A stretch of DNA of 64,000 nt from Abditibacterium sp. (GCA_965199495.1 CBDASK010000003.1:3072001-3136000), one strand, 5' to 3'; numbered from the stretch's first letter, positions 2 to 61,743 are shown. The notes: a model not told the origin generated them from the letters alone. Translations and numbers: made by a program.

Positions 2-433
2 GGTGCCGCGCGTTTGATGCGCGTCGAGTCGCGTCATCAGGCGGGATTGGCGCAGATTCTGACGGCTTTGGCTGTAATCGTGCTGTGTCACAGTTCGAGC
101 GCGACGTTGCCCGCGCTTAGCGCGCGCGTGCAACGCGAAACCGGCGACGAAAGTGCGCTCTTGCTCGCCAGCGACCGCGCCAATTGGAGCGCGGCGCTGG
201 CGCCGTGGCTGGGCGCGCGCGGTAGAATTGGCGCGCAGGGTTTGGCGTTCGAGGCCGTGTCGTTCGAGAGCGAAGAAAAGGCCGGATTTGCCCTGCGCGC
301 GGGCGACGCCGTGCTGGCAACCCTGCAACGGGCCAGCGCGTCCAAAGTTGGGGCAACGCCGGATTTGCCCGCCTCCGTGCGCCGCATCAAACGCGACGAT
401 TCCCTCGTCGAAACGCTGGAACGCAACTTCTGA
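2..433 (+). CDS. Hypothetical protein, 5'-truncated by the window edge
   Basis: The frame of ORF 14..433 is open to the window start; genome-typical codon usage; no recognised motif. Confidence 0.45.
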   Translation, partial: GAARLMRVESRHQAGLAQILTALAVIVLCHSSSATLPALSARVQRETGDESALLLASDRANWSAALAPWLGARGRIGAQGLAFEAVSFESEEKAGFALRAGDAVLATLQRASASKVGATPDLPASVRRIKRDDSLVETLERNF

Positions 434-523
434 TTTTTCGCGTCAGGCGTTAAACGAATATTTCCCCTCTTTGATTTTACAGGCGCAACACCGCGCTTCA
501 ACGTTCTTCTCTTCCGCATCGCC

Positions 524-2809
524 ATGAATTTTCCACGCCGCTCCATCTCCGCTTCGCTGGGATCGTGGTGTGTGCAACTGGTTTACAAACCGCGCTCGCC
601 GGAAGAATCTATCGCGGCGGGGACGGGCGAAGCGCCTTTTCGCTTGCAACGCGCGCTCTTGCCCGCGTTTCTCGCGATTTTCATTGCGAGCGGCGCGGCG
701 TGTTATGCGTTGGCGCACTTCATCGGTTTGCCCGTCGCCGGGCGCGTTTTGACGTTGATTTTGTGCGTCGCGACTTTTGTCGCGTGGGGCGCGCGTTGCG
801 GCGCGCCCGCGCTACGCCGAATTTGTCTGGCGATGCGCTGGCCGCTCGCGGTTACGCTCTCGGTTTTCACGCTGTCACTGCGGTGGAGCGATGAGTTCGC
901 CGCGCTCCTGAGGGGCGAACCCAATATGCAGGCCGCGATTTTTTGCGGGTTCATCACGCTACTGAGCGTTTTGCTCATCGGCGCGCGTTCGGGCGGGCGC
1001 CTCGTGCCGGTGGCTGCTCCGCTCGTGCCAGCGCTTTCGCTGCTGGGGTTGCTCTGTCTGGTGGCGGTTGATGGCATCACGCAGGCGTGTTTTTTATTGT
1101 TTTGTGCGGCGGCACTTTATGTCAAATGTTACGACTATTTTTTGCGCACCGCCGCGCCCGATTTGAGTTCGGGCGTGTGGAATATCGCGCCGCGCGCGCG
1201 CCGTGTCGCGCGCGGCGATGCGCCCGCGTGGGCGCTGCAATCGGTTTTGGTGAGCAGCGTTTGGTTCGCGCTTTTTCTGGGCGGTGGCGCCCTCTTATTT
1301 TGGCCGTTGCAGGCGCTTTTGCCCAAAATCTCGGCGCCGCGTTGGGAGCGCGGGCAGAGCGATAGCGGCGCGCGCAAACTCGATTATAGCGGCGGCGCGG
1401 GCGTGATGGAACTGCGCGGCGGCACGCACGCTTTATCCAACCGCGTTTTGCTGCGTGTGACGCCGATTCGCGGACGCCAGACCGGTTTGTGGCGCGGTCG
1501 CGTTTACGAATTATACGACCGCTCGCTGTGGAGCGAACGCATTCCCGCCCGTAAAACTGACGAGGAAATCCAGACATCCAACCGTTTGGTAGTTCATCTG
1601 GTGCGCCCTCGCCCCCTGGGCACTTGGGTCGCCAGTTTGCCGCAACTAGCGCCCCAACTCGGTCGCGTCGAGCGTATCACCGAGTTAATCGAACCTTTGG
1701 GCAGCGTCGCCAACGTGATTTATTCGTCGGGTTTGCCCCTCCGCATTGACGATCGCAAAGACGTTTTCGACGCGAGCGATCCGGCGCGCGCCGGCGATTT
1801 GACGCGCTCGCAGATGCCTTATGTGGCGCGCTCTTTCACCGTCGAACCCAATCTGCTCGTTTTGGATCAAACGCGCGGTTTCGATCCCGCAGCCGACAAC
1901 TCAAAAATCGCGCCCACCCTGCTCCAAAATTTGCGGCTCAATCTCGCGTTGCCACCGGAAAAATCAACGCGCGCCGTTCTGGCCAGCCTGACCAGCCAGA
2001 TCGAAGCGGGCCGTTTGCCCACGCGCACGCCCTCGGAAAAAGCGCGCGCCGTCGCCGATTATTTGCATCGCACCTGCGTTTATTCTTTGCAGGCGCCCGC
2101 CGTGCCGGTCGCTTCGGATGCGACGGTTTTCTTTTTGACCGACGCGCGTAGCGGCGCCTGCGATATGTTCGCTTCGTCGGCGACGTTGCTCTTGCGCGAA
2201 ATGGGCGTGCCCGCGCGCGTAGCCACCGGCTTCTTAGACCCGCAAAATGACGAATCCGCCGCCAATTTTAATGGCAAAGCTGTCACCGTTTTGCGCGAGC
2301 GCGACGCGCACGCCTGGGTCGAGTATTATGTGCCCGATTACGGTTGGCTCACGCTCGATCCGACGCAAGGCACGCGCGAGGCGCCCGTTACTTTGGCCAG
2401 CAAACTGGCCGCATTGTTCGATCTGTCCCACCTCAAAATAGCGCCCGTTTTGTTAGTGTTGCCGCTCGCCGGTTTCGCTCTGCTCATCGCCGGATTGCTG
2501 TGGCAACGCCGCGAAAACCGTGATGCAAGCGCCGACGAAAACGAGCGCCAACTCATCGAAGCCGCCTATGCCAGAGCGTTGCATCTGCTGCGCCGTCGCG
2601 CCTCTTATGCTCCCGCGCTCACGCCCGGCGAATACGAGACGCGCGTTTTGCAATCGGACGCGCCCGCCGCCGCTAAACAAGAGTTCGCCGCGCTGACTCA
2701 TCTTTATCTGGCCGCTCGCTACGGCCCGGCGCCCGGTGCCAATCGCGAGCAAATCGAAGCGAGTTTGGCGCGCCTGAAATCGGCGCTCAAGCGCGGCAAT
2801 AAAACGTAA
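524..2809 (+). CDS. TgpA-like membrane transglutaminase (N-terminal TM region, transglutaminase core, DUF4129-like C-terminus)
   Basis: Multiple TM helices; catalytic motifs GACDMFAS, GVPARVATGF, DAHAWVEYY and GWLTLDPT; C-terminal TPGEY...LYLAARYG. Start codon uncertain. Confidence 0.85.
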   Translation: MNFPRRSISASLGSWCVQLVYKPRSPEESIAAGTGEAPFRLQRALLPAFLAIFIASGAACYALAHFIGLPVAGRVLTLILCVATFVAWGARCGAPALRRICLAMRWPLAVTLSVFTLSLRWSDEFAALLRGEPNMQAAIFCGFITLLSVLLIGARSGGRLVPVAAPLVPALSLLGLLCLVAVDGITQACFLLFCAAALYVKCYDYFLRTAAPDLSSGVWNIAPRARRVARGDAPAWALQSVLVSSVWFALFLGGGALLFWPLQALLPKISAPRWERGQSDSGARKLDYSGGAGVMELRGGTHALSNRVLLRVTPIRGRQTGLWRGRVYELYDRSLWSERIPARKTDEEIQTSNRLVVHLVRPRPLGTWVASLPQLAPQLGRVERITELIEPLGSVANVIYSSGLPLRIDDRKDVFDASDPARAGDLTRSQMPYVARSFTVEPNLLVLDQTRGFDPAADNSKIAPTLLQNLRLNLALPPEKSTRAVLASLTSQIEAGRLPTRTPSEKARAVADYLHRTCVYSLQAPAVPVASDATVFFLTDARSGACDMFASSATLLLREMGVPARVATGFLDPQNDESAANFNGKAVTVLRERDAHAWVEYYVPDYGWLTLDPTQGTREAPVTLASKLAALFDLSHLKIAPVLLVLPLAGFALLIAGLLWQRRENRDASADENERQLIEAAYARALHLLRRRASYAPALTPGEYETRVLQSDAPAAAKQEFAALTHLYLAARYGPAPGANREQIEASLARLKSALKRGNKT

Positions 2810-2823
2810 AAATAAAATAACCC

Positions 2824-2852
2824 TTGACTTAATTAACACCGTTAATTAAAAT
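2824..2852 (+). promoter_or_regulatory. Sigma70-type promoter overlapped by a palindromic operator (likely TetR autorepression site)
   Basis: TTGACT(2824-2829)-17 nt-TAAAAT(2847-2852); perfect inverted repeat TTAATTAAC-ACC-GTTAATTAA at 2829-2849; ATG at 2863. Confidence 0.75.
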
Positions 2853-2862
2853 ATCTGCAACG

Positions 2863-3552
2863 ATGAATCAAATCACGGTTTCGACGCGCCACCAGCGGAC
2901 GCGCACCGCCAGCCAAGAGCGGCGCGAGCAACAGAAAGTCGAGTTGCGCGCGGCGATCTTGCGCGCGGCGGACGAAGAATTTTCCGCTCACGGTTACGAA
3001 GATTTTTCGCTGCGCCGTGTGGCCGAGCGCATCGGTTACTCGCCGACGACGATTTATCTTTATTTCAAAAATAAAGATGAATTGCTGTTGCAAACCGTGA
3101 AAAGCGGATTCGCCGCCTTCGATGCCGCGATTCAAAACGCCGCTCAGGGCGCGGGCGAACCGTTGCAAAAGTTGGAAGATTTGGGCCGTGCTTATCTCGA
3201 ATTCGGCATCGAAAATCCGACGCTCTATCGCATGATGTTCATGCAGCCCGCCGATTTTCATCTGCTGCCACGCTTGCTCGGCAGTGGCACGCCCGATGAA
3301 GAAAAACAGAGCGAAAACGCCAACGCCCATCGCGTGATCGCGCAGGAATTGTTGGTCGAGGCCGTCCAGCGCGGCATTGACGAGGGCACCCTGCGCGCGG
3401 GCGACGCGTTACTAATGGCCGACGCGTTGTGGGCCAGTGTTCACGGTTTGGTCTCGCTCGCCGCCAGCCCATTAATGGAGCCAGATCACGCGCGCAAAGT
3501 CGCCGCCCCGTTGCTGCAAACCATCATCGCCGGGCTGCGAAACGCGGGATAA
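2863..3552 (+). CDS. TetR/AcrR family transcriptional regulator (WHG-type C-terminal domain)
   Basis: HTH FSLRRVAERIGYSPTTIYLYFKNKDELL; C-terminal LWASVHGLVSL. Confidence 0.92.
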   Translation: MNQITVSTRHQRTRTASQERREQQKVELRAAILRAADEEFSAHGYEDFSLRRVAERIGYSPTTIYLYFKNKDELLLQTVKSGFAAFDAAIQNAAQGAGEPLQKLEDLGRAYLEFGIENPTLYRMMFMQPADFHLLPRLLGSGTPDEEKQSENANAHRVIAQELLVEAVQRGIDEGTLRAGDALLMADALWASVHGLVSLAASPLMEPDHARKVAAPLLQTIIAGLRNAG

Positions 3553-3593
3553 ATTCGGGAATTACGCAATAAAACCTTCGTTTTGAACTCAAC

Positions 3594-3606
3594 TTAACGC
3601 CGTTAA
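3594..3606. promoter_or_regulatory. Second copy of the operator core upstream of the DUF2339 gene
   Basis: TTAAC-GCC-GTTAA matches the core and spacing of TTAAC-ACC-GTTAA at 2833-2845; it ends 10 nt before the ATG at 3617. Confidence 0.55.
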
Positions 3607-3616
3607 TTTAATAACA

Positions 3617-6600
3617 ATGGAAAACCTAAATTCTGCCGACACAATCGAAGCGCGTCTGGATAAGTTAGAAGCGCAAATGCTGCGCGTCGAGCGACGTTTG
3701 CACCTTGACGCGCCTGCCATTGTGATGGACGCGCTACCAGCCACGCCGCCAGTATCGCCGCCGCCCGTGGCTGGGCCAACTTCGTTTGCACCGACCATTG
3801 TCGTGCCTTCCGCGAAGCCGGAAAATGTGGCGGTTGAAGCGCTCGCCAAATCCGCAGAATCACCAGTTTCTGCGCCCGCGCCGCGTCCTCAAATTCCAGC
3901 GCCAGCCTCTGCCTCCGTGCCGATTCCATCGAATGAACCAGCGAGAGCGGCAGTTTCTCTGCTCGCTTGGGAGCAGTTAGTCGGCGGCAAATGGGCGTTG
4001 TGGGCGGGATTGTTGTCGGTTTTCGGCGCCATCGCTTCGTTTTTGGCGTATACGTGGCGCTACTTTTCGCCCGAATCAAAAGTGGCGTTGGGGCTGTTCA
4101 TCGGCATCGCGTTTTTAGTGGCGGGCGAGTGGACGCGCAAGCGCGCGCAGCGTTGGTTTAGCGAAGGCGTTTCGGGCGCTGGCTTGGGATTTTGCTTTTT
4201 GAGTTTATGGGCGGGCGGCGCGCACTTCTCGATTTTCGGGTTCGGCCTCACTTTCGGCGCGATGGCTTTGGTTTGCGCGCTGGGCGTGTGGCTGGCGGTG
4301 CGCTACGACGCGCTCGGCCTCAACATTTTGAGCGTCATCGGCGGCTTTGCCACGCCGATGTTGTTGCGCGGCGACGCGGCGGGCGGGCACGGCGCGGCGG
4401 TTTCGTTGTTGGTTTACCTCGCGATTTTGAACGCGGGCGCCCTGGGCGTTTCGCTGTTCAAGCGTTGGCGCGCCTCGGTCTGGCTGAGTTTCGGCGCGAC
4501 TTTGACGCTGCTGTTTTTCTGGTTGCCCGATTCCAACATTGACGCGATGCGGCTCACGGTCTGGGCGTTTTTCAGCCTCCATTTTGCGCTTTATGTCGGC
4601 GCAGCGTGCTTTTACAGCTTGGCGCGCCGCGAACAGACCACGCCCGAAGACATCGGTTTAATTTTGGCGGCGACCACGATTTACGCGCCGTTCGCGCACG
4701 ATTTGCTGTTGCCAATCGCGGGCGCATTTCCGGGCGCGTTCATGCTGGTTTTCGCGGTTTTCTGGAGCGCGTTGTGCGCCTTGGTGGCGCGGTTGGCACC
4801 CGCCAATAAATTATTGCGCGACGTGACGGGCGCGCTCGGACTTTTGGCGTTGACGGTCGCGATTCCGATTCAGGTTTCGCAGCCGTGGCTCGGCATCGCG
4901 CTGATGGGCGAAGCCGCCGTGTTGGCGGGCTTGGCGAATCGCCATCGCGACGCCCAATTGTTGCGGCGCGCCGGACAAATCGTGTGGGCGTTGGCGCTTT
5001 TGCCGCTCGTCGCCGGTTTGGTTTCGCCCGCCGGTAGCGTGCGATTTGGACTTTACGAAGGCAGTTGGCCGATGCTTTTTGGCGTCGCGGTCAGCGCGTG
5101 GCTGGCGTGGAGCGCGCATTGTCAAAGCGCCCGCGAAAATAACGTTAAAGCCGAAGAATTGGTTGATTATTATGTCACAGCCGCCGTCGCGAGTAGCGCG
5201 TGGCTGCTCGCGCGTGAGCTGTTGGCGCGCGGATTCGCGCCGCAAAGCGCGATAATGGCGGTCGGGTTTTTGGCGGTTGCCGTCTTTATTTTGGGTGCCA
5301 AAACGCGTTTTGTCGCCGTGCAAATTTGCGCGTTGGTGGGGGCGGTTTGCGTCGCGACGGCGGCGATTATGCTCGATTCATCGCAAGCCGCGCCCGCAGT
5401 TTTGCCGCTTAGCAACGCGCGCTTTGTGGCGCTCATTGGCACGGCGGGCGCGCTCTATGTTTTGACGTGGCTGGCGCGCCAAAACCAGAATGAACTGCTG
5501 CGGCGCGCTGGACAAATTATCTGGGTTTTGGCGTCGCTGCCGTTGTTTCAGGGCACGCTGTTTTCGGCGAGCGCGGCGCAGTGGGGCTTGCATTGCGGCG
5601 GCTGGCCGGGTGTGTTCGCCATTTCAATGACGGCGGCACTGGCGTGGAGCGCGCACCGCCACACCAAAAACGCCGACGAACTGCGCAACGTTTACGCGGG
5701 CATCGCCGTCGTGGGCGGCGCGTGGCTGATCGGGCGCGAGACGCTGGCGTGGACGCACGACGCCAACGGCGTTACGATGGCGCTTTCACTCTTCGCGGTC
5801 GCGATTTTCGCGGTCGGCGCGACGGCGCGCTTCGCGATGCTGCGCGCGTGCGCGGGCGTTTTGGCGGCGGGCGCGGCTTCGGCGGTTTTGTGGTTGGCGT
5901 GGTCGCATCCGTCGCCCGAATTGTTACCATTCTGGAACGCGCGCTTCGTCGCGATGACGATAACGCTGGGCGCGTTAGTGGCGATTTATCAAATCGCGCG
6001 CACGGTAGATTATCCATTGCACGACGCCGAAAAAGTGGCGGCGCGCGCGCTGCCCGTCGCCGTGGCAACGCTCGCGCTGGCGGCGTTTTCGAGCGAGATT
6101 TATTTCGGGTTCGCCCATTTCGCGCCGCCGCAATGGGCCAATCGCGCTTATTTCGTGTTAGCCATCGGCTGGAGTTTGTCCGCGCTGGGCGCGTTATCGG
6201 TCGGATTGCAAACGCGCAATATCAGTTGGCGCGTGTGGGCTTATGTCGTGGGCGGCGTGGCGTTGGCGTCTTTGCCAATTAATGCGTTGACCGGCGACGC
6301 GTTGGGAATGCCATTTCTCAACCTGCGATTCGCCGCGTTTGCCGTTGCCATCGCGGCTTTGTGCGTGGCCGCGTGGCGGCTGCGCACAGGCGAAATCGCG
6401 GGCGCGATTTCCGAGGGCGAGGCCGAAGCCATCGGCGCGGCGGCGAGCGCGGCTTTGGTGTTGGCGCTGTTTTCCTTGACGCAGGAAACCTGGGAAGCCG
6501 GGCGCTATTTGGCGCCGCGCGGCAGCGATTGGCAACGCGGCGCGCAGCTGGCGATTTCCCTCGTCTGGTCGCTGTTCGGCGCGCTTTTGCTGGCGGGCGG

Positions 6601-6793
6601 CGTGCAGTTCCGCGTACAGGGCGCACGTTTGGGCGCCTTAGTGCTGTTGGCGTTCACCGTCTGCAAAGTTTTTCTGTTCGATTTGAGTTTCTTGGATGGC
6701 GCCGGACGCGCGCTTTCGCTGGGCGGATTGGGCATGGCGCTGATTTTTATCTCGTGGCTTTATGGACGGTTCGGTCGGGTTTCGGTGAATTGA
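3617..6793 (+). CDS. DUF2339 family polytopic membrane protein
   Basis: N-terminal coiled coil and Pro-rich linker; WEQLVGGKW motif; GGFATP motif; many TM helices; C-terminal KVFLFDLSFL...RALSLGGLG. Confidence 0.85.
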   Translation: MENLNSADTIEARLDKLEAQMLRVERRLHLDAPAIVMDALPATPPVSPPPVAGPTSFAPTIVVPSAKPENVAVEALAKSAESPVSAPAPRPQIPAPASASVPIPSNEPARAAVSLLAWEQLVGGKWALWAGLLSVFGAIASFLAYTWRYFSPESKVALGLFIGIAFLVAGEWTRKRAQRWFSEGVSGAGLGFCFLSLWAGGAHFSIFGFGLTFGAMALVCALGVWLAVRYDALGLNILSVIGGFATPMLLRGDAAGGHGAAVSLLVYLAILNAGALGVSLFKRWRASVWLSFGATLTLLFFWLPDSNIDAMRLTVWAFFSLHFALYVGAACFYSLARREQTTPEDIGLILAATTIYAPFAHDLLLPIAGAFPGAFMLVFAVFWSALCALVARLAPANKLLRDVTGALGLLALTVAIPIQVSQPWLGIALMGEAAVLAGLANRHRDAQLLRRAGQIVWALALLPLVAGLVSPAGSVRFGLYEGSWPMLFGVAVSAWLAWSAHCQSARENNVKAEELVDYYVTAAVASSAWLLARELLARGFAPQSAIMAVGFLAVAVFILGAKTRFVAVQICALVGAVCVATAAIMLDSSQAAPAVLPLSNARFVALIGTAGALYVLTWLARQNQNELLRRAGQIIWVLASLPLFQGTLFSASAAQWGLHCGGWPGVFAISMTAALAWSAHRHTKNADELRNVYAGIAVVGGAWLIGRETLAWTHDANGVTMALSLFAVAIFAVGATARFAMLRACAGVLAAGAASAVLWLAWSHPSPELLPFWNARFVAMTITLGALVAIYQIARTVDYPLHDAEKVAARALPVAVATLALAAFSSEIYFGFAHFAPPQWANRAYFVLAIGWSLSALGALSVGLQTRNISWRVWAYVVGGVALASLPINALTGDALGMPFLNLRFAAFAVAIAALCVAAWRLRTGEIAGAISEGEAEAIGAAASAALVLALFSLTQETWEAGRYLAPRGSDWQRGAQLAISLVWSLFGALLLAGGVQFRVQGARLGALVLLAFTVCKVFLFDLSFLDGAGRALSLGGLGMALIFISWLYGRFGRVSVN

Positions 6794-6850: not shown

Positions 6851-9307
6851 ATGAAATCCCTTCTATTTCTCCTCCCGCTCGCGGGCGCCGGACTTTTCGC
6901 CGCCTGTTCGCAAACACAACCGCGCATTGTGCCCGCCGTGGCTGCTCCAAACCAGCAACCGATGCTGCGACAAATCCAATTCGAGAAAATGCCCAACCAG
7001 CCCGCGCCAAATGTGCCGCAGTTCGGGCTGTCGGTCGTGGACGACGCAGGCAAGGCTCTGGCGATTTGTCCGCTCCAGCGCACCGACGTGAAATCCGACA
7101 TCTCCGGGCAGATGGCGCGCGTCGTGGTGACGCAGCACTTCTCCAATTCGTCCGAGACGCCGATTGAGGCGCTTTATACTTTCCCGTTGCCGCACGATGC
7201 CGCCGTTGACGGCATGACTTTCAAAATCGGCGAGCGCACCATTAAAGGCGAAATCAAAAAGCGCGAGGAAGCCGCGCAGATTTACCAACAGGCCAAAGCC
7301 AACGGACAAAACGCGGCGTTATTGGATCAAGAGCGGCCCAATATCTTTTCGCAGCGCGTGGCCAACGTGATGCCCGGCCAGCAAATTCAGGTCGAAATTT
7401 CGTTTACCCAGCCCGTCGTCTATCGCGCCGGGCACTACGAATGGGAATTTCCCACCGTCGTCGGCCCGCGCTATACCACGCCGCAAACGCCCGACGCCGA
7501 CAAAATCACGCCGCCGGTTACGCCCGAAGGAACCAAAGCCGGGCACGATTTGACGATGCAGATTCATCTGACTTCGCCGGTCGCGCTGGGCGAAATCAGC
7601 TCGGCGCTGCACCCGATTACAATTGACAAAAGCGGCGACAACGAAGCCAATATCGCCTTGAAAGACGGCGCGACTTTGCCCAATAAAGATTTTATCTTGC
7701 GATTCGCGCCGCGCGATAACGCCCTCCAAACCGGTTTAGTGACGCGATCCGATGGCGAAGGCGGCGGCTGGTTTCAGTTGGTCGTGCAGCCACCGGCGCA
7801 GGCGCCCCAGTCGGGAATCGCGCGCAAAGAAATGGTTTTTGTGATTGACCAAACCGGCTCGCAGGCGGGCGCGCCCATCGAAAAAGCCAAGGAAACGATG
7901 CGCTATTGCATCCAAAATCTCAACGCGGGCGACACTTTTCAATTGCTCGGCTTCAACACCGATGTTCACCCGTGTTTTCCCAAGCCCGTCGAAGCCACGG
8001 CGGCTAACATCGCCAAAGCCAAAGCGTTTTTGGCGCCCTTAAACGGCAACGGCGGCACGGATATTCTCAAGGCGACCAATTACGCGCTTCAGATTCCCGC
8101 CGACCCGGATCGTCCGCGCATCGTCTGTTTCATGACCGATGGCTATGTCGGCAACGAAGCGGAAATCACCAAATTTATTCACGACAAAGGCAAAAGCGTA
8201 CGCATGTTTCCGTTTGGCGTGGGCAACTCAGTCAACCGTTTTCTGATCGATTCGATGGCGCGCGAAGGGCGCGGCGTGCCCGAATACGCGCTCTTGAATG
8301 AAGACGGGAAAAAGTTAGCGCAGCGTTTTTATAATCGCGTCGCGAACCCGGTTTTGTTGGACGTGAAACCCAATTGGAACGGCTTGCCCGTCGCCGAGGT
8401 TTACCCGAAAACCGTGCCCGATGTGTTCGAGAGCGGCCCCGTCGTTTTGACCGGACGTTTCACGCGCCCGGTCGCGGGCGAACTGATAGTGCGCGGTCGC
8501 TCGGCGGGCAAAGAATGGAGCAAACGCGTGCCGGTGGATTTCTCGCGCGCCGACCAAAAGAGCGGCGCCGGTTTGCCATCCGCGTGGGCGCGCCAGAAAA
8601 TCGAGGATTTGACCAATACTTCGCCCACCCAAACATCGGGCGAAACCGCCGACGATTTGCGCGCGCAAATCACCAATGTCGCGCTCGATTATCATCTGAT
8701 GAGCCAATACACCAGCTTCGTCGCGGTTGAACCGACGGTTGTCAACGTCGGCGGTCAGCAGAAAACCGTCGAAGTTCCCGTTGAGATGGCCGATGGCGTG
8801 AGTTACGAAGGCATCTTTGGCGCGCGCGGCGACGCCGTCGGTTCGCTGAGTTTGGCGCGTAGTTCGTTCGCTAATGGCAAGGCGACCGCGATGGCGGGCG
8901 CGGCGCCGATGATGCCCGCGACAGCCATGAAATTTCGCGCTAACATTGCCACCGATGGAATCGCGCTCAACGATAAAGAGACCGAGTTGCCCACGCCCGC
9001 GCAACTCGCGCAGATGACGCCCGCGCAACGTATCAAAACCGGGCGCGCCGCCAAGATGAGCGGGGCCGTCGCCAAACTCGCGGCGCAAACGCCCGCCGCG
9101 AAAGTCACGGTTCAACTGTGGCTTGCGCCTTTGGCAAACGAGGCTGCGCGCGCGCAATTCGCGGCGAAGTTGAAAGAGTTGGGTTGGACGCAAAGCGCGG
9201 TTTTGACGCCGGGCAAACTGGTTTTAGGCGAAATTTCGAGCGACCAACTCGACGCCGTGGCTGCGTTGCAGGGCGTGAAGTTGATCGAAACGCCGAAGTT
9301 CAAATAA
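6851..9307 (+). CDS. VIT (vault/inter-alpha-trypsin) plus vWA domain lipoprotein
   Basis: Lipobox-like LFAAC; VIT motifs EALYTFPLP and AALLDQERPNIF; vWA MIDAS-like DQTGS...GGT...TDG; LMSQYTSFVAV. Confidence 0.88.
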   Translation: MKSLLFLLPLAGAGLFAACSQTQPRIVPAVAAPNQQPMLRQIQFEKMPNQPAPNVPQFGLSVVDDAGKALAICPLQRTDVKSDISGQMARVVVTQHFSNSSETPIEALYTFPLPHDAAVDGMTFKIGERTIKGEIKKREEAAQIYQQAKANGQNAALLDQERPNIFSQRVANVMPGQQIQVEISFTQPVVYRAGHYEWEFPTVVGPRYTTPQTPDADKITPPVTPEGTKAGHDLTMQIHLTSPVALGEISSALHPITIDKSGDNEANIALKDGATLPNKDFILRFAPRDNALQTGLVTRSDGEGGGWFQLVVQPPAQAPQSGIARKEMVFVIDQTGSQAGAPIEKAKETMRYCIQNLNAGDTFQLLGFNTDVHPCFPKPVEATAANIAKAKAFLAPLNGNGGTDILKATNYALQIPADPDRPRIVCFMTDGYVGNEAEITKFIHDKGKSVRMFPFGVGNSVNRFLIDSMAREGRGVPEYALLNEDGKKLAQRFYNRVANPVLLDVKPNWNGLPVAEVYPKTVPDVFESGPVVLTGRFTRPVAGELIVRGRSAGKEWSKRVPVDFSRADQKSGAGLPSAWARQKIEDLTNTSPTQTSGETADDLRAQITNVALDYHLMSQYTSFVAVEPTVVNVGGQQKTVEVPVEMADGVSYEGIFGARGDAVGSLSLARSSFANGKATAMAGAAPMMPATAMKFRANIATDGIALNDKETELPTPAQLAQMTPAQRIKTGRAAKMSGAVAKLAAQTPAAKVTVQLWLAPLANEAARAQFAAKLKELGWTQSAVLTPGKLVLGEISSDQLDAVAALQGVKLIETPKFK

Positions 9308-13343: not shown

Positions 13344-14363
13344 ATGAAACGTCGCGTTTTGATGGTTTTAGCTGTTGTAGTTCCGCTCGCGCTATTTTTA
13401 GTAGCGCGTCGGGCGGCGAGTTTGCGGCCCGCGTTAATGGCAAAGGGTTCGTTCGATGCTTTGATGGTAACTACACCAATCGGTAATTCAACGCGTTCGC
13501 GTTCAGGCCGGTTTGTGGTCATAGATGATTATCGTTCGCCCCTTTGGCTGTTGGACGCCATAATCCCGAATAAACGCCGCGCCATCAAGCGTGGTCTGCC
13601 GGTTTTCTCGTCCGATGAGAAGATGTTGGCTATCGTAATTCCGCACAATACTTCTATGCCTCTTGCTTCTTCTGTTATGCTTCCGCAAACGCAATCGGCG
13701 CTTCGCGTCTATATTCGAGACTTGCAAACGGGTCGCGAAAGGCAGTTGCAAAGCGTTCCACTGGCCCTTAATTCTCGGCCCACATTCTTCATTCAAGATG
13801 CGGCGTTTTCGATGGATAACGCCACATTTGCTGTTTTGGCTGTTGGCACTACAGTTTTTCGATGGGATGTTCAAAGCGGCAACTTGCTGACGAAAACCAA
13901 AGGCCAATTTGACTATAATCTTGGACAGACGCGGTTGTTTGATGAAAGCGAGAAAATTTGGAAAGGCAGTGCGTCGGGCGTCACGATTTATAACGCCCGA
14001 ACTGGCAAAGTGGAGCGCACTCTAAAACAAAACGGCGTGCTGATGCGCGATGAGAATTTCTACTGGAGTTTGGATCCTTCCATGAAGATGGAAACAAGAA
14101 TTTACCGCGTTTCCGACGGCGCAATCGTGTTCCATTATAAACCGGCGACTGCGCCCGTTGTCTCGCCCGATGGCCGTTGGATTCTCGTCCCGCGCAGTTC
14201 GCCTTTTTCCACGCCTATTAAGGTGGAACTCCGCGAAGTTGGAACCTGGCATTTAATCGCCACAAGAGAGCTTACTGGCGGCGACAGATGGGAATTCGAT
14301 GGCCCCAATCACGTTCTCACGCTCAATAACAAAGGCCAAGTTTATCGTTGGCGTCTGCGTTAA
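13344..14363 (+). CDS. Hypothetical membrane-anchored beta-propeller-like protein
   Basis: N-terminal TM helix; WD-like segments (FSSDEKMLA, WDVQSG, VSPDGRWILV); AT-richer than its flanks. Confidence 0.6.
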   Translation: MKRRVLMVLAVVVPLALFLVARRAASLRPALMAKGSFDALMVTTPIGNSTRSRSGRFVVIDDYRSPLWLLDAIIPNKRRAIKRGLPVFSSDEKMLAIVIPHNTSMPLASSVMLPQTQSALRVYIRDLQTGRERQLQSVPLALNSRPTFFIQDAAFSMDNATFAVLAVGTTVFRWDVQSGNLLTKTKGQFDYNLGQTRLFDESEKIWKGSASGVTIYNARTGKVERTLKQNGVLMRDENFYWSLDPSMKMETRIYRVSDGAIVFHYKPATAPVVSPDGRWILVPRSSPFSTPIKVELREVGTWHLIATRELTGGDRWEFDGPNHVLTLNNKGQVYRWRLR

Positions 14364-33489: not shown

Positions 33490-33828
33490 TCAACTGACGA
33501 AAGTATCGAGTTTGGAAAGCACAACCGGCAGACGCCGCGAACGCTTGGCGCGTAGCGCCGCGATGTTTTCCAGTTCGATGCCCAGAAACTCTCGGCAAAG
33601 AAAAAGTAGCGCGCAAAACGCCAAATTCTGCGTCGCCGCCACGACGTGCTGGCGCGCCGCCATGTGCGTGAGATAACTCTCGATTTCCGGCACTCCCATC
33701 TCTAAAGGTCGCTTCCTATGAAAGCGCAGGAAACGCTCGATGGTAAGCAGATAAGATTCTTCGGTGCGCCCACTCATGCGCCGCACCCGCATAAACTCGC
33801 TGATTTGCCGCAAAAGTTCGCTTAACAT
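33490..33828 (-). pseudogene. intI: Truncated integron integrase (N-terminal SAM-like domain only)
   Basis: MRVRRMSGRTEESY...FLRFH.KRP.EMG..EI..YLTHMA....V.AATQNLAFCALLFL....L...RAKRSRRLPVVLS is the IntI N-terminus; it stops 8 codons later and the catalytic domain is absent. Confidence 0.85.
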
Positions 33829-33954
33829 GTGCCGTCGCCACGTTGTGGGCGATTGGATGAATTAGGATACATAGCGGTATTTTACTCAATTTAGGTGTGT
33901 TATGCCGACGTGAAAAACTTTGTTGTAAATCGCGGTTTTATGTGCTATGCTAAA

Positions 33955-34007
33955 CGCAGAATTCGTTATTAAACCGCTTCAGCGTCGGCTTAATAACAGT
34001 GTTCTGT
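33955..34007. other. Putative integron attachment site (attI region or attC-like hairpin)
   Basis: GCAGAAT..GTTATTAAACCG-loop-CGGCTTAATAAC..GTTCTGT upstream of and divergent from intI; candidate G^TT crossover at 34001. Confidence 0.5.
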
Positions 34008-34176
34008 CGTCGCGTCAGCTTTTGGGGCGCGGCAAAAAAGTAAAGCGAAAAAGGAATACAAATAGCTCAACTTTCCCACACTCATTAGAGAGACTGTACC
34101 TGATGATTCAACTCCTTTATGGCATAATTTCAAATAGGCCATTTAACTCTGCGCTGTGTCGGTCGGAGTAAAACTC

Positions 34177-34401
34177 ATGTTTTGGATAATTGTAGCGATA
34201 CCCATTGTTCTTTTAATTCTGGCACTTCTGCTGGAGCCACTGGCGCAAAGCAGGCGCGAACGCGCGATATTTGAGCAGATGAAGAATGCGCGTGATGCGA
34301 ATGAAGCAAAAGCCGTAATGAATTCTGCAATAGACGCGAATAAGGACAAAACAAAGTTGCCTGAAGATTGGAACGATTCATATCGCCACTGGCAAAAATA
34401 A
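34177..34401 (+). CDS. Small membrane-anchored hypothetical protein, probable integron gene cassette
   Basis: GGAG RBS then ATG; single N-terminal TM helix; AT-rich; cassette orientation relative to intI; followed by CCCCAAC and GCCGAAC inverse-core-like boxes. Confidence 0.6.
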   Translation: MFWIIVAIPIVLLILALLLEPLAQSRRERAIFEQMKNARDANEAKAVMNSAIDANKDKTKLPEDWNDSYRHWQK

Positions 34402-34495
34402 TGTCCGCACTAATCCCCAACAACAGCCGAACAAGAGATTATGTTGGCAAGAGGCCATATCCCACTTTTTCAGCAACTATTTCGCTTTTCACCAA

Positions 34496-34699
34496 TTAAG
34501 AGTGGTTATGGAGCGACTGTGACTGCCAGCTCGCATCAAACGGCTTCTGATGCTTCAACACGCCGTAAACGATCATCAACATCTTCCTCATGCACGCCGC
34601 CAGCGCTACCCTGCGCGGTTTGCCCGCCGCAATCAATCGCTGATAATGCGCTTTGATCAGAGGATTCCACGTTAGACCCGTTACGGCGGGAAAAACCAT
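34496..34699 (-). mobile_element. IS110-family transposase C-terminal remnant
   Basis: FPAVTGLTWNPLIKAHYQRLIAAGKPRRVALAACMRKMLMIVYGVLKHQKPFD is a typical IS110 C-terminus; the upstream part is missing. Confidence 0.85.
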
Positions 34700-34860
34700 C
34701 GCTTTTCGTAATCGCGTGTTGACCTACTTGCTTAATCGTGTGTAGGGCGAACGCTTGCGCCGCTGCGATATTCACGCGGAGCCAATTAGGCGGCGCACGG
34801 CTTGACAGGAAATGAAAGAGTCTATCCTACTATTTGTAGGAGAAAATCCAAAAGGAAGAT

Positions 34861-35142
34861 ATGCAATACGTTCTTATTATTCACGAAGTCGAAGATTATG
34901 CCGCATGGAAAGCGATTTTTGATGACGCAGCACAACTCCGCAAGGAAGCCGGAGAAATCAGTTATCAGTTGCTCAAGTTTGAAAATGACGCTACCAACCT
35001 CGTGCATTTCTCACGATGGAGTTCATTGCAAAACGCCAAGAACTTCTTCGAGTCGGAACGGTTAGTTGAAATTCGTAAACAAGCGGGTGTCAAAGCGCCC
35101 CAATTCGTCTATTTAGATGAAATTGAAAGTGGCATTTTATAG
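34861..35142 (+). CDS. Antibiotic biosynthesis monooxygenase-like small protein (dimeric alpha-beta barrel)
   Basis: MQYVLIIHEVEDYAAWKAIFD...AGEISYQLL...FFES; RBS-like AAGGAAG. Confidence 0.8.
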   Translation: MQYVLIIHEVEDYAAWKAIFDDAAQLRKEAGEISYQLLKFENDATNLVHFSRWSSLQNAKNFFESERLVEIRKQAGVKAPQFVYLDEIESGIL

Positions 35143-35325
35143 TGAAGAACACGATTTGGGCACCGGGCGTTGCTGTTAGCTCCATTGGAATCACGCTCCC
35201 AACGCACACATTCCGTGTAATACCAACCGCAACACAACGAGGCGCTAATCTCGACCGCTTCCAGTTTCGCGCTTGTCGCGTAAGTTACAGGAATTTAAAG
35301 CGAGAAGACTGAAACTTTCGGTTTT

Positions 35326-40727: not shown

Positions 40728-40815
40728 TTGTAGAGACACCGACTTGTCGTGTCTAAAACGTTAGATTTGCCGCGATTTTTACGTTTTAGACACGACAAGT
40801 CGGTGTCTCTACAAA
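40727..40815. repeat. GTAG-type REP doublet (35-bp perfect arms)
   Basis: TTTGTAGAGACACCGACTTGTCGTGTCTAAAACGT (40727-40761) is inverted at 40781-40815; GTAG head followed by an internal palindrome AGACAC..GTGTCT. Confidence 0.88.
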
Positions 40816-50548: not shown

Positions 50549-50800
50549 ATGTTACTCGGATTCTACGATTGCCACGATACGCTCGAACGTTTGGACGATT
50601 ATCTCGACCGCGAGCTTTCGCCAAAAGAGAATCGTCAAGTCGCGATTCATCTGGCGATTTGTCTCAAGTGCGCCCAACATTATCGCTTCGAGCAAGGCTT
50701 TATCCAAGATGTGCGCGCCAAATTGGAGCGCGTCGAAGTGCCGCCCGAACTGATGAAGCAGATCAGCCTGTCGCTACGCGCGCTCGATGCGCCCGAATAA
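50549..50800 (+). CDS. Zinc-finger (zf-HC2) anti-sigma factor, RsrA-like
   Basis: DC...LDDYLDRELS...HLAICLKC; directly downstream of the ECF sigma gene; start uncertain. Confidence 0.85.
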   Translation: MLLGFYDCHDTLERLDDYLDRELSPKENRQVAIHLAICLKCAQHYRFEQGFIQDVRAKLERVEVPPELMKQISLSLRALDAPE

Positions 50801-50988
50801 CGTTCGGGCGCACAGCCACGGCGGCTTGGTTACGGAATTTGTCGTCGTGATGCTCGCGTAATAATTGGGCTTCATCGAAATGGAAACGCGCGAAAATGCG
50901 CGGTTTTGTGCCGTGACCCGCGCGTGATAATTGGACGCAACGGGAACTCAGAGCGCGTTACGAGCTTTTATAGCGTTAGATTCAACCC

Positions 50989-51996
50989 ATGAAAAACTTC
51001 AAATTTGCCATCCTCGCCACCGCCGGTTTGCTCGCTGGCGCGGGCTTTGGCGCTTATCGTCTGAACAACAAACCGGCGCTGGCGGCGGCAGAAAACAATT
51101 TCAAAACCGCGCCCGAACTGGTCGGTTCGCAGTGGCTCAACACGCCGGGCAACAAGCCGATCACTCTCGCTTCGCGTCGCGGCAAAGTCACCATCGTCGA
51201 GTTTTATGCGACGACTTGTTCCAACTGCATCGCCAATTTTTCGGCCTATAACAAATGGCACGACGATTTGAAAAATCAGGGCGTCGAAGTGATCGGCGTT
51301 CATACGCCCGAAACTTCGTTCGAGCGCGACCCGAAAAACGTGGCGTCGCAAGCCAAAAAGTATGGCATCAACTATCCGATTTTGATCGATGCCAACAGCA
51401 AAAATTGGCAGAATTACAATCAGCAATACTGGCCGACGATTTATGTCGTGGACAAAGCCGGGAAAATCCGCTCGAAGTGGGAAGGCGAACTCGAATCGGG
51501 CGGCGGCAAAGGCACCGCCAAAATCACGGCGCAAGTTCAGCAATTACTCGCCGAAAAATCGCCCGCTGGAATGAAAAACGTTTCGACGAATAATATGCCC
51601 AACGCGCAGGGCAAAGTCGTGAAAACCGACGCGCAATGGCGCGCGCAGTTGACGCCGCAGCAATACGAAGTTTTGCGCAATGAAGGCACCGAAGCGCCTT
51701 ATTCCGGCGCGCTGTTGAAGAACCACGAAACCGGCGTTTTCGTGTGCGCGGGTTGCGGTCAGGAACTGTTTAAGTCCGGCACCAAATTCGATTCGGGCAC
51801 TGGTTGGCCGAGTTTTTATCAGGCGATTCCCGGCGCCGTCGTCGAGAAAACCGACGACAGTTTGTTCATGGAGCGCACCGAAGTCGTCTGTTCGCGTTGC
51901 GGCGGACACTTGGGCCACGTCTTCAACGACGGCCCGCAACCGACCGGTTTGCGCTATTGCATGAACTCGGCGGCGTTGGGTTTCGAGAAAAAGTAA
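50989..51996 (+). CDS. msrB: Exported redoxin (thioredoxin-like)-methionine-R-sulfoxide reductase fusion
   Basis: Signal peptide; CSNC and GVHTPE redoxin domain; MsrB motifs [36 protein letters not shown]. Confidence 0.92.
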
Positions 51997-56329: not shown

Positions 56330-56953
56330 ATGTCCGTTGTTTTACCCGCCGAACTGTTCCGCCGCGCCGACGAATCGAGCGATTTAGATTTCTACAATCA
56401 ACCGCGATTGGTCGCGCATATCGAACCCGAAACTATCGAAGCGGTCACCAAACTTTATCGCGAATTGTTGCCGCCAAATGGCGCGATTCTCGATATGATG
56501 AGTTCGTGGATTTCGCATTTGCCCGCCGAAATGAGTTTCGCCCGTGTGGCAGCTACCGGCATGAACGCGCGCGAATTGGAAGCCAATCCGCGCCTGACCG
56601 ATTACAAAGTTCACGACCTTAACGCTAATCCGCGCTTGCCTTTTGCAGACGCGTCGTTCGACGCGGTGACCTGTTGTGTTTCGGTGCAATACCTGACGCA
56701 CCCCATCGAAGTTTTCGCCGATGTCGCGCGCGTCTGCCGCGCTGGGGCGCCGCTGATTGTTACTTTCTCCAATCGTTGCTTTCCAACCAAAGCCGTCGCC
56801 GCGTGGCAGAATTTGAATGACGAAGGCCATCTCAAATTAGTCGCGTATTATCTGCAAAGCGCGGGCGGTTGGGACGCTATCGAAATGCGCGATTGCACGC
56901 CGCAGTCGGCGCGCGAACCGCTGTTGGCCGTCGTCGCCCGGCGCCGTGGCTGA
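56330..56953 (+). CDS. SAM-dependent methyltransferase (type 11-like)
   Basis: FYNQPRLVAHI, LDMMSSWISHLP, GMNARELEANP, SVQYL, TFSNRCFPTKA. Confidence 0.88.
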   Translation: MSVVLPAELFRRADESSDLDFYNQPRLVAHIEPETIEAVTKLYRELLPPNGAILDMMSSWISHLPAEMSFARVAATGMNARELEANPRLTDYKVHDLNANPRLPFADASFDAVTCCVSVQYLTHPIEVFADVARVCRAGAPLIVTFSNRCFPTKAVAAWQNLNDEGHLKLVAYYLQSAGGWDAIEMRDCTPQSAREPLLAVVARRRG

Positions 56954-57619: not shown

Positions 57620-57643
57620 AATTGGGCAGGTAAATTATCGCTT

Positions 57644-58258: not shown

Positions 58259-58308
58259 CCAGAGTAGTCTGGCTGATTTGATAATATCAAGCGTGAAAAC
58301 GCGAAATC

Positions 58309-58317
58309 TGATATAAT
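58309..58317 (+). promoter_or_regulatory. Extended -10 promoter for the HEAT-repeat gene
   Basis: TG-A-TATAAT about 35 nt upstream of the ATG at 58353. Confidence 0.45.
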
Positions 58318-58352
58318 TAAAGGGTTAAACTCTCTTGTTTGGAATAGATTAT

Positions 58353-60014: not shown

Positions 60015-60092
60015 GGGGTCAGGTCTCAGTTTTCAGGTGTCAGGAAGCATGGCTTTTCTCCTGAAAACTGAGACCTGAAAACTGTCACCTTA
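60012..60092. repeat. Inverted repeat of tandem heptamers
   Basis: AGGTCTC/AGTTTTC/AGGTGTC mirrored by CTGAAAA/CTGAGAC/CTGAAAA/CTGTCAC. Confidence 0.78.
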
Positions 60093-60097
60093 CCAAG

Positions 60098-60586
60098 ATG
60101 AAAAAGAAAGAGACGCAATTTAAATTTATCGGCAACGAAACCATCGTTTCCAACCGGCGGGCGCGCCACGATTATGAGATTACCGAGACAATGGAAGCCG
60201 GTCTGGTTTTGACAGGGACGGAAGTCAAAAGCATCCGTCAGGGCGGCGCCCAAATCGCCGAAGCCTATGCCATCGTGGATCATGGCGGACGCAAGGCGCC
60301 CGAAGTTTGGATTCAGGGCATGTTCGTGCCGCCCTATTTATCGGGCAATTACAACAACGTTGACCCGCGTCGCAAACGCAAATTGTTGTTGCATCGCAAC
60401 CAAATCAACAAATTGATCGGGGCGAGTTCGCAAAAGGGCTACACGCTGATTCCACTGAAATTGCATCTGAAAAACGGCAAGATTAAAATGGATATCGGCG
60501 TCGGCAAAGGTCGCAAAAGCCACGATAAACGCCGCGCTATCGCCGACCGCGAAACCAAACGCGACATGGAACGCGGACAGTTATAA
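60098..60586 (+). CDS. smpB: SsrA-binding protein SmpB
   Basis: NRRARHDY, EAGLVLTGTEVKSIR, RKRKLLLHR, GKGRKSHDKR. Confidence 0.97.
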   Translation: MKKKETQFKFIGNETIVSNRRARHDYEITETMEAGLVLTGTEVKSIRQGGAQIAEAYAIVDHGGRKAPEVWIQGMFVPPYLSGNYNNVDPRRKRKLLLHRNQINKLIGASSQKGYTLIPLKLHLKNGKIKMDIGVGKGRKSHDKRRAIADRETKRDMERGQL

Positions 60587-60590
60587 CATT

Positions 60591-60775
60591 TTAGGAGTTC
60601 CGCATTTGCGCTCGCGATGTCATTTCGAGCTTGCCGAGAAATCTTTCGGCCCCGCGCCAGCGGAAGTCGCAGAAAACTTTGAACGTGAAAACCGCTCGAA
60701 CTGGGCTGCCGCGCGGGCGTAAGATTTCTCGGCAAGCTCGAAATGACATCGCGAGCGCAAATGCGGAACTCCTAA
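60591..60775. repeat. Long inverted-repeat element (55-bp perfect arms, TGTCATTTCGAGC...GAGAAATCT type)
   Basis: 60591-60645 is the exact reverse complement of 60721-60775. Confidence 0.93.
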
Positions 60776-60780
60776 TCGAC

Positions 60781-61743
60781 ATGAAATTCTCGGTCGTTGT
60801 CCCTTGCCACAATGCAGCCACGTCCATTGGGCAGACGCTACAAAGCATCGCGGCACAAACTTTGGCGCCGCACGAAATTATCGTCGTTGACGACAATTCG
60901 ACCGACGATTCGCGCGCGCAAATCGAAAATTGTGGCGTGCCGGTTCAGATTTATAAAGTTGATTTCGCGTGCGCGGGCGCGGCGCGCAACGCGGGCATTG
61001 CAGTAGCCACCGGCGATTGGATCGCGTTGTGCGACGCCGATGACGTGTGGTTTCCCCATCACTTGGAACAGGCGGCGCAGGTTTTACGCGATGGCAATGA
61101 CGTGGCTTATATGGCCAATCATTGCTTGCGCCGCGCGGGCGCCGATGAGTCGTTGCCCGATTCGATGCGGCACCAAATCGAATCGTCGGGCGGCGGCAGG
61201 ACGGGCGCGACGTGGCTCGATATTTTGGTGGAGGGTTTTCATTTCGGGCATTCGACGGTGATTTACCGGCGCGCTGTTTTGCGAGAAGCTGGCGGCTTCG
61301 ACGAAAGTTTCGCGCGGCAGGAAGATTTGGATTTGTGGTTACGCATGATCGCGCGCGGCACCTGGGCCTACGGCGCGCAGGAGGCGATGGCTTATCGCAC
61401 CGATACGCCGGGCAGTTTGTCGAAAAATATCGTCAAAAGCGAGGTTTTTTATCTGCGCGCGTTGCTCGGTAATCGTGCGAATTTTCCCGGCGCGGCGATG
61501 CAAACTTTACTGGGACGCAGCACGCGGCGCGCTTTGAGTCTGGCCTTTGTGGACGGTTCGCGCACCGATTTTCGCGCGGCTTATGTGTTGGCGCGGCTTC
61601 ATATTTCGCCGAAGTTGCGCGCTTTTTATGCTTTGGCACCGCTATTTCGTCCGCTCGTGCGCGGCGCGATTCGGCTCAAAAGGCGCTGGGTCTGGCGTAA
61701 TAATCCGGCGAAGGGTAAATTGAGTTTTGAGGAATCGGTTTGA
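60781..61743 (+). CDS. Glycosyltransferase family 2
   Basis: MKFSVVVPCHN, VVDDNSTD, ARNAG, CDADD, EDLDLWLR. The longer ORF start at 60631 lies in the repeat. Confidence 0.9.
   Translation: MKFSVVVPCHNAATSIGQTLQSIAAQTLAPHEIIVVDDNSTDDSRAQIENCGVPVQIYKVDFACAGAARNAGIAVATGDWIALCDADDVWFPHHLEQAAQVLRDGNDVAYMANHCLRRAGADESLPDSMRHQIESSGGGRTGATWLDILVEGFHFGHSTVIYRRAVLREAGGFDESFARQEDLDLWLRMIARGTWAYGAQEAMAYRTDTPGSLSKNIVKSEVFYLRALLGNRANFPGAAMQTLLGRSTRRALSLAFVDGSRTDFRAAYVLARLHISPKLRAFYALAPLFRPLVRGAIRLKRRWVWRNNPAKGKLSFEESV

Follow-up and report, generated by a model that had tools for sequence, protein, structure and literature searches.

A GTGGCT-centred word is dispersed over an Abditibacterium genome, kept by selection and spaced separately on each strand

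Results

We analyzed a 64,000-nucleotide stretch of Abditibacterium sp. (GCA_965199495.1, CBDASK010000003.1:3072001-3136000), hereafter called the window, which is dotted with copies of a short non-palindromic word built on the hexamer GTGGCT. The host genome (G000) is 95% complete and consists of three contigs, C3 (4.72 Mb), which carries the window, and C1 and C2 (25 and 65 kb). Its SmpB has its nearest match, at 96% identity, in a metagenome-assembled genome of the Abditibacteriales. A reading made from the sequence only had noticed the word and proposed an uptake-sequence-like or protein-binding motif. We found that the word is a real, selected, genome-wide DNA-level signal of this lineage, and that its copies saturate separately on each strand. 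Its copies in the window are the following, with + and - denoting the strand.

201..60822, both strands: dispersed word CG[A/C/G]C-GTGGCT-GC[T/A], consensus from 3,091 genomic copies
Exact CGTGGCTG, starts 1-11: 204+, 3738-, 3766+, 5097+, 5199+, 5466+, 5721+, 6937+, 9256+, 10910-, 11002+
Exact CGTGGCTG, starts 12-22: 12192-, 15712+, 17555-, 20150-, 20421+, 20988+, 21485-, 22236+, 23604+, 23726-, 25164+
Exact CGTGGCTG, starts 23-33: 26213-, 26316+, 30064+, 31234-, 32767+, 36090-, 36404+, 37499+, 39851-, 40430+, 42468-
Exact CGTGGCTG, starts 34-43: 43278+, 47252-, 48045+, 50813-, 52220+, 53711-, 54624+, 56945+, 59621+, 60815-
6934..6946, plus strand: CGCCGTGGCTGCT, a copy with the full consensus, read as Ala-Val-Ala-Ala in the sense frame that is most common, with the rare GCT codon
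15709..15721, plus strand: full-consensus copy antisense to a gene on the minus strand, in which it reads Ala-Ala-Thr-Ala
50813..50823, minus strand: strong intergenic copy between the called genes 50549-50800 and 50989-51996
3738..3773, both strands: close inverted pair (minus, then plus) outside the gene calls, within a longer open reading frame, 3617-6793
5097..5728, plus strand: four copies in 630 bp without the strong flank, all Trp-Leu in one protein
56942..56952, plus strand: strong copy that runs with its 3' end into the TGA stop of a gene ending at 56953

The count in the window is close to what the sequence-only reading had estimated by hand, roughly 40 exact copies against 3-4 by chance: there are 43 exact CGTGGCTG between 204 and 60822, including all 15 positions that it had named, whereas 100 dinucleotide shuffles give 2.44 +/- 1.56. 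The strong 5' flank CG[ACG] precedes 29 of the 43 copies, the longer CGCCGTGGCTG occurs 18 times against 0.09 expected, and the many one-mismatch variants that it had mentioned amount to 84 8-mers. The copy at 50813 lies outside the gene calls, in agreement with its placement between genes, and so do those at 3738, 3766 and 60815. No copy was found in the two AT-richer segments described as empty (13344-14363 and 33490-35300), but these gaps alone show nothing because just 0.7 and 1.2 copies are expected there at the genome rate.

Over the whole genome we counted 3,091 CGTGGCTG against 237 predicted by an order-3 Markov model, and the word ranks first in the 6- to 12-mer enrichment lists. In the 4,058 genes called with the genome's own di-codon model there are 2,852 copies, compared with 275 +/- 13 after synonymous shuffling, 682 +/- 34 under a di-codon null that keeps the protein and 645 under a free di-codon chain, so that the excess stays under the very di-codon-preserving null that might have abolished it. 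Each of the six frames lies above every codon and di-codon null, and the word occurs on both strands; as a control, the reversed word was seen 286 times against 215 and 165 under the nulls. Coding DNA is richer in the word (0.70 per kb; 92% of copies lie in coding sequences, CDS) than intergenic DNA (0.34 per kb). The uncommon GCT and ACA codons that the word had been suspected of forcing are indeed tied to it: 13% of all GCT codons in the genome sit within the hexamer, and the antisense frame reads xCA-GCC-ACG (AAT 558, TAT 139, PAT 101, SAT 38).

The consensus is CGVC-GTGGCT-GCW, that is CG[C/G/A]C-GTGGCT-GC[T/A], with little information past about 13 bp. Variants of GTGGCT itself are mostly at 0.6-1.8 times background, with one at 4.8 times, and variants at the flanking C and G keep an enrichment of 3-8 times. 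Thus, the unit is an all-or-none hexamer with graded flanks. Comparison of genes above an identity threshold between G000 and the related genome G011 (plus locus L002) showed that GCT was retained in 51 of 53 motif codons and in 271 of 600 codons elsewhere, and GTG in 55 of 58 motif codons and in 1,095 of 1,398 elsewhere; the word is therefore under purifying selection. At the greater distance of G004, 20 of 61 sites were kept compared with 36% of all hexamers, pointing to turnover of sites.

The word is unpolarised: taking the terminus to lie near 4.3 Mb, with dnaA at 2.03 Mb, we found 51.6% of its copies on the leading strand, while GGGNAGGG in the same genome reaches 78%; the density is flat with distance from dnaA (0.58-0.69 per kb), and each strand separately carries a copy every few kb. 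The small contigs C1 and C2 hold 2 and 6 copies of the 8-mer instead of the 16 and 42 predicted from the genome rate, and their hexamer counts, 18 against 13.5 and 28 against 29.4, are near local expectation, so that the word is neither enriched nor avoided there. The region of C3 from 1.115 to 1.26 Mb has 36 copies where 95 are expected at the genome rate. The 130 CRISPR spacers (4.75 kb) contain no copy, an uninformative absence with about 3 expected at the genome rate; they belong to an array of 131 repeats at G000:C3:2766477-2775000. A terminator or promoter role was rejected, as the density has no peak at stops or starts and dips in the 90 bp upstream of starts, and the five counted copies that might have been placed in rRNA fall outside the 16S gene. 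Apart from the word, several 6-bp palindromes are strongly avoided in G000 (CGGCCG, 32 against 4,780; CTCGAG, 40 against 4,165), and such avoidance, also of GTAC and CTAG, is seen in most class members sampled, with or without the word. In C3 the GC skew is weak; just one gene of the GyrA/ParC type is present, and Rfam gives one match, to 16S rRNA.

The main new result is that the copies thin out near each other only when they lie on the same strand. Same-strand pairs have an observed/expected ratio of 0.09 at 16-50 bp, then 0.14, 0.24, 0.34, 0.29 and 0.30 (300-400 bp), and onward 0.42, 0.65 (600-800 bp), 0.78, 0.87 and 1.02 (1.5-2 kb), whereas opposite-strand pairs, in either arrangement, show no trend and keep close to 1 (0.64-1.24) except for a slight excess at a spacing of 12-15 bp. 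Strong sites behave similarly (same-strand 0.09, 0.18, 0.42, 0.76, 1.04), and within single CDS same-strand pairs make up 22% instead of the expected 51%. Among 216 abundant 8-mers, the seven with the lowest same-strand ratios all overlap the word and the remainder are at 0.96 or above. Hexamers on the same strand as a strong site and less than 200 bp away have a density of 0.21-0.25 per kb, the neutral level being 0.20-0.24, which argues that a second copy is useless rather than harmful; active exclusion of direct repeats (deletion avoidance) was rejected since the density drops to the neutral level and not below it. A toy model of per-strand coverage, run once with hand-set parameters and a reach of 600 bp, gave 0.10/0.18/0.43/0.84/0.99 for the observed strong-site series, and a strand-blind model failed because it thins opposite-strand pairs as well. 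G011 and G004 showed the same sign with small counts (22 same-strand pairs against 36 expected, and 10 against 15). Copies therefore saturate per strand at about 0.6-1 kb, by redundancy and not by exclusion. The four plus-strand copies at 5097..5728 are the main exception in the window, and they most likely belong to the neutral background.

As controls, we used loci with the DNA uptake sequence (DUS) and the uptake signal sequence (USS), of which 80 and 79 were listed and 47 and 51 kept after dropping short, overlapping and low-density ones. At 50-600 bp both classes are thinned in these loci (same-strand 0.34-0.78, opposite-strand 0.22-0.96), and hairpin pairs are 4-15 times in excess, an excess inflated because the control loci were chosen for holding an inverted pair; opposite-strand pairs of the word at 16-50 bp are at about 1.1 times. 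In E. coli, Chi was not thinned: its first 100 sites on the plus strand gave 9 same-strand pairs at 16-400 bp against 7.1 expected.

The A+T content around the word oscillates on both sides with a period of 11.05-11.1 bp, the amplitude being 0.065 upstream, 0.037 downstream and 0.013 at 150-200 bp, and AA and TT steps vary about twofold in phase, symmetrically about the core. Because the phase is identical over the six frames, at all codon positions and in intergenic DNA, this is not an echo of alpha-helices. For 250 control 8-mers the median amplitude was 0.012, and only two exceed the word, both overlapping it. The core thus seems to have a fixed rotational setting on curved duplex DNA. An 11.2-bp A/T periodicity runs strong and long-lived across the whole of G000 and is just somewhat stronger near sites (score 81, compared with 54-66 far from them). 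Genome-wide 11-bp scores are 57, 78 and 38 in the three word genomes and 24, 18, 18 and 15 in G009, G012, G010 and G002; a score of 38 is also reached by G006, which has no word, and equally high ones by small samples of further genomes without it. Helical phasing between neighbouring copies is weak and seen in minus-plus pairs only (p about 0.005-0.008, uncorrected).

The word is hyper-abundant only in G000, G011 and G004, that is in 3 of 13 genomes of the genus, 3 of 31 of the class and 3 of 251 sampled in the phylum, and these three form one side of a 100/100 branch in a ComEC tree of 13 rows. The ten remaining genus members, sampled over 10-200 kb, gave no comparable dispersed word; for group g5 and G041, absence refers to 4-80 kb samples and whole-genome counts of the two known words. 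A GTDB scan for inverted pairs returned, among the 80 loci listed, mostly one Streptomyces palindrome, the densest being an Abditibacterium record at 0.7 per kb; it is no evidence of absence elsewhere because it covers only the matches listed. Neither the word nor other iterated words of the phylum were described in the article listings searched, and the word is apparently unreported, although an oligomer survey of all genomes may have it in its tables.

Six relatives carry a different, palindromic word, RAGTACTY, with 2,695-4,371 copies in G020, G022, G024 and G042 (genus g6) and G014 and G018 (genus g3), and at most 396 in the other 25 genomes. In G020, 61 of 169 copies lie in conserved CDS, which cover 54% of the DNA, in three frames; the copies are evenly spaced (0.05, 0.20, 0.43, 0.78) and weakly phased. 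These HIP1-like palindromes appear as WTCGAGTACTCGAW in g6 and as GCAAGTACTTGC or CAAAGTACTTTG in g3, at 0.7-1.2 per kb in coding DNA, and several g3 copies have long perfect arms; GAGTACTC is similar to the SlmA-site core of E. coli. Two further candidates for dialects were rejected. TCGACCGTACT of G017 is half of an intergenic 26-30 bp palindrome, with 15 of 198 copies in conserved CDS, and for that reason its spacing is not comparable; this palindrome, AGTACGGTCGAWWTCGACCGTACT, recurs about every 2 kb in the samples of G017:C14 (L364-L369, L415-L426); it is seldom found within conserved CDS, and flanks rich in A and T give it the look of a bidirectional terminator or a repetitive extragenic palindromic (REP) element. 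The apparent flank dialect of G004 is a REP-like repeat, GTAGGAC-GTGGCT-GGTGTC, superposed on the same dispersed word, with a single such copy in G000; in G004:C8:760001-960000 (L022-L031) its inverted pairs GTAGGACGTGGCTGGTGTC, which contain the core, number about 78 in 200 kb.

An operon resembling AddA/AddB is present in 10 of 10 word-less members of the genus and in 0 of 3 word-bearing ones. More widely, a UvrD match of AddA size was found in none of the nine genomes with GTGGCT or RAGTACTY, and both words are missing from all 14 genomes that bear AddA; G000, G004 and G011 have a single UvrD-family match each. One place formerly occupied by addAB now has metabolic or unannotated genes. G000 has matches to RecA, RecF, RecR, RecJ, two RecQ, RecN, RecG, RuvABC, RadA, PriA, SbcCD, MutS, MutL, gyrase, DprA and ComM, and none to RecB, RecC, RecD or MutH, nor to RecO with the E. 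coli query, going by the names that we assigned to most of the queries.

The competence genes for which the sequence-only reading had called are complete in G000: ComEC is intact (an 862-aa open frame) and is accompanied by ComEA, DprA and ComM, a pilus cluster of PilB/PilT/PilC/prepilin-peptidase with pilins, and 15 prepilin-like proteins found by a motif search. ComEC and ComEA were rejected as discriminators, being found in 23 of 23 and 29 of 31 genomes with or without the word. In the word-less, AddAB-bearing G012, the ComEC open frame on C1 is 558 aa and ComEA 62 aa, which suggests that its competence genes have decayed.

As possible readers, we considered a Dna2-like enzyme and several methyltransferases. 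The former, a nuclease-SF1B helicase of 1,421 aa at C3:4111365-4115630, is 85% identical in G004; it adjoins a type IB topoisomerase (G000:C3:4111365-4117038, L344). Within the genus it is found in 3 of 3 word genomes and 0 of 10 word-less ones, yet it is broken in G011. MmeI-like methyltransferases match in 12 of 13 genus genomes and were rejected as well, and no methyltransferase among those examined tracked the word. An N4/N6 DNA methyltransferase lies directly downstream of mutS in G000 (C3:2188266-2192266), in the same order in G011.

The window also holds copies of two other repeat families, GTAGAGACACCG and AGCCACAGAG-headed (at 40730 and 40801, and at 28705, 45221 and 45364). C3 contains 155 GTAGAGACACCG and 98 AGCCACAGAG-headed repeats, the first bases of the latter being the word's hexamer. 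Between 17200 and 30529 lie four consecutive DUF11-repeat proteins, the shortest 189 and the longest 2,089 aa; the N terminus of the last one weakly resembles AgmC, and the run is probably a surface adhesin cluster.

Discussion

The reading that we favour, tentatively and with somewhat less than even confidence, is that the word is a tag of self DNA resembling the highly iterated palindrome 1 (HIP1), read strand-specifically in recombination and working without AddAB. Its observed basis is the over-representation, the selection, the per-strand saturation, the helical phasing, the near-background level on plasmid-like DNA and the lack of AddAB/RecBCD in the hosts. A putative sequence-specific protein would bind the GTGGCT core on curved duplex DNA and license one of the strands through nicking, loading or an arrest of resection, and the licensed strand would enter RecA-dependent recombination via a RecJ/RecQ/RecFOR route. 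In cells possessing neither AddAB nor Chi, the tag could thereby help both to repair two-ended breaks and to integrate DNA arriving from kin. If reading is orientation-specific, each strand would need its own copy within roughly 0.6-1 kb, and since two-ended breaks or randomly chosen incoming strands would need each orientation, no replichore bias would arise. By analogy, such a tag may work as HIP1 does in recombination or as a substitute for Chi, belonging to neither family. In Synechococcus PCC 7002, homologous unmethylated HIP1 raised integration 7-fold, and deletion of addAB did not abolish this gain (bioRxiv 10.1101/2024.09.10.611283).

Several observations weigh against this reading. 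At least seven genomes (G016, G019, G021, G023, G041, G017 and G027) have neither an AddA-size match nor a dispersed word that we could see, and the link between AddAB and the word amounts to two or three lineages, in which kin are not independent and several metagenome-assembled genomes are incomplete (63-95%). No reader protein was found among the candidates tested (the Dna2-like enzyme and the methyltransferases): the former is present in G016, which has no word, and in G017, and was not found in G020, G022 and G014, and two clade-conserved N4/N6 methyltransferases also occur in word-less genomes, one of them being split in G000. Within 200 bp of strong sites, opposite-strand hexamers are about 20% thinner in three of four bins. 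The sites bear no compositional scar such as strand-specific processing might leave, the GC-skew flip of 17.1 lying within the control range (6.4 +/- 6.7), so that we rejected it as a signal. Repair and competence genes are not significantly richer in the word (43 against 35 expected). The 11-bp phasing implies duplex binding and in itself does not point to recombination, and a function shared by the GTGGCT word and RAGTACTY is conjecture by analogy.

A third, independent uptake sequence of the DUS/USS type is an unlikely yet serious contender. Here a pilin or a secretin-associated receptor would, at the cell surface, bind the word on curved duplex DNA, and uptake drive would enrich it; thousands of copies on both strands and in all frames, without replichore bias and near background on C1 and C2, would follow naturally, as would the intact competence genes and pilus cluster. 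The sharp core, graded flanks and phased A/T tracts recall USS, about 26 close inverted hexamer pairs are intergenic and most have extended arms, and the different words in sister genera recall the dialects of Neisseriaceae described in PMC3630211. The spacing speaks against it, since DUS and USS thin in both orientation classes with an excess of hairpin pairs and the word does neither; to yield such spacing, the imported strand would have to be set by the orientation of the site, and USS uptake is reported in PMC1939737 to be orientation-independent. The poorer intergenic DNA and the occurrence of ComEC with or without the word tell against it as well. Of the sequence-only reading, then, the lineage-specific, frame-independent, unpolarised and selected signal in a competence-gene-bearing host stands, and the likeness to uptake sequences is only partly supported, with hairpins, intergenic density, strand-specific spacing and the competence genes of word-less relatives speaking against it.

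We regard as improbable that the word is a one-strand methylation or nick mark, of which one orientation would be marked per daughter duplex after replication, so that mismatch or other repair would need both within an excision tract of about 1 kb. The all-or-none hexamer looks like an enzyme site (AGCCAC is presumably shaped like an MmeI/BREX-type site with a penultimate A), saturation per strand is on the scale of a tract, MutS and MutL are present without MutH, and the methyltransferase lies beside mutS in G000 and G011; HIP1 and the C. jejuni RAATTY are described as acting via methylation in PMC13756078 and bioRxiv 10.1101/2024.09.10.611283. That enzyme is, however, elsewhere in G004 and 47% identical, a 66% homologue occurs in G020 with its other word, and the two clade-conserved enzymes mentioned above are present in genomes without the word as well; in addition, near-matches show no deamination signature and there is no divergence gradient around sites.

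Equally improbable is a polar site of chromosome architecture, at which an abundant protein would wrap or bend pre-curved DNA over about 100-300 bp and, acting in one direction, anchor or block supercoils or loop extrusion. The frame-independent oscillation on both sides, extending to intergenic DNA, the twofold swing of AA/TT steps and the high 11-bp scores of the word genomes relative to G009, G012, G010 and G002 would suit it, and a structural role has been proposed for HIP1 (PMC5861425). A symmetric wrapper such as gyrase should nevertheless ignore orientation, the periodicity is nearly equal far from sites and as high in G006 and in small samples of other word-less genomes, the palindromic dialect is weakly phased, and the AddAB pattern is left unexplained. 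That the word arose neutrally, from preferences for codons or di-codons, from mutational bias or from repeat spread, to which the core within the REP-like repeat of G004 might point, is very improbable and largely refuted by the 4-fold excess over the di-codon null and 10-fold over the synonymous shuffle in six frames, by silent-site conservation and non-random spacing, and by 92% of G000 copies lying in CDS with about 13 bp of information while the G004-type repeat occurs there once.

The hyper-abundant functional words established in bacteria are few, namely DUS, USS, HIP1, Chi and the FtsK-orienting polar sequences (KOPS), and for HIP1 no reader is known after 30 years. A palindrome hides the direction of its reader, so that an asymmetric word can show directional reading; from the present one, a helical setting and a range of about 0.6-1 kb per strand can be read off. 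Genomes of a single family carry either word type, asymmetric or palindromic, or neither, in apparent relation to a missing AddAB; they are a natural experiment through which comparative genomics may lead to the reader and the notion of HIP1 as a non-canonical Chi can be tested directly, and the statistic of same- versus opposite-strand pairs is a cheap sorter for other unexplained words. More broadly, bacteria without AddAB/RecBCD might repeatedly evolve a strand-read word that does the job of Chi in break repair and transformation via RecFOR/RecJ/RecQ, with at least two origins in Abditibacteriaceae (GTGGCT, asymmetric; RAGTACTY, palindromic) and HIP1 as a palindromic case whose polarity is hidden; this generalization we consider quite unlikely. 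To our knowledge, the marine picocyanobacteria are without HIP1. PMC5101192 places recC mostly in marine Prochlorococcus and Synechococcus, and PMC7430649 also belongs to the literature cited here.

Compared with known systems, the word is by its behaviour a self word of the HIP1/DUS class, but the features tested do not allow it to be counted among DUS/USS, HIP1, Chi, KOPS or REP. HIP1 (GCGATCGC) and the alternate cyanobacterial palindromes, as described in PMC5861425, PMC13756078 and bioRxiv 10.1101/2024.09.10.611283, are alike in recurring about once every 1-1.5 kb, within and outside genes and in every frame, in silent-site conservation and, for HIP1, in boosting recombination even without addAB. 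The GTGGCT word differs from them in being non-palindromic, with no cognate methyltransferase found among those examined, and in its other phylum and unrelated sequence; the look-alike of HIP1 is rather the palindromic RAGTACTY of the six g6 and g3 relatives. DUS and USS (PMC3630211 and PMC1939737) share with the word the non-palindromic form, thousands of copies without replichore bias, scarcity in mobile DNA, graded flanks, lineage-specific words and the presence of competence genes, whereas the word has no hairpin-pair excess at 16-50 bp, is poorer between genes, thins on the same strand only and has phased flanks that extend more than 150 bp on both sides. Chi is similarly an asymmetric, G-rich, mostly coding and orientation-dependent self signal, but G000 has no RecB, RecC, RecD or AddA match, the word lacks a leading-strand skew, and Chi of E. 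coli lacks same-strand thinning. Unlike KOPS and the architecture-imparting sequences (AIMS), the word is not polarised from origin to terminus (51.6%, flat density), and unlike a restriction-modification site the hexamer is not avoided on C1 and C2, whereas many 6-bp palindromes are strongly avoided. REP elements and bacterial interspersed mosaic elements (BIME) resemble the GTAG-type inverted repeats of G004 that hold the core and the 26-30 bp intergenic palindrome of G017; REP is an intergenic GTAG hairpin of 20-40 bp, whereas the word of G000 is dispersed and coding, and the GTAG repeats of G000 are unrelated sequences.

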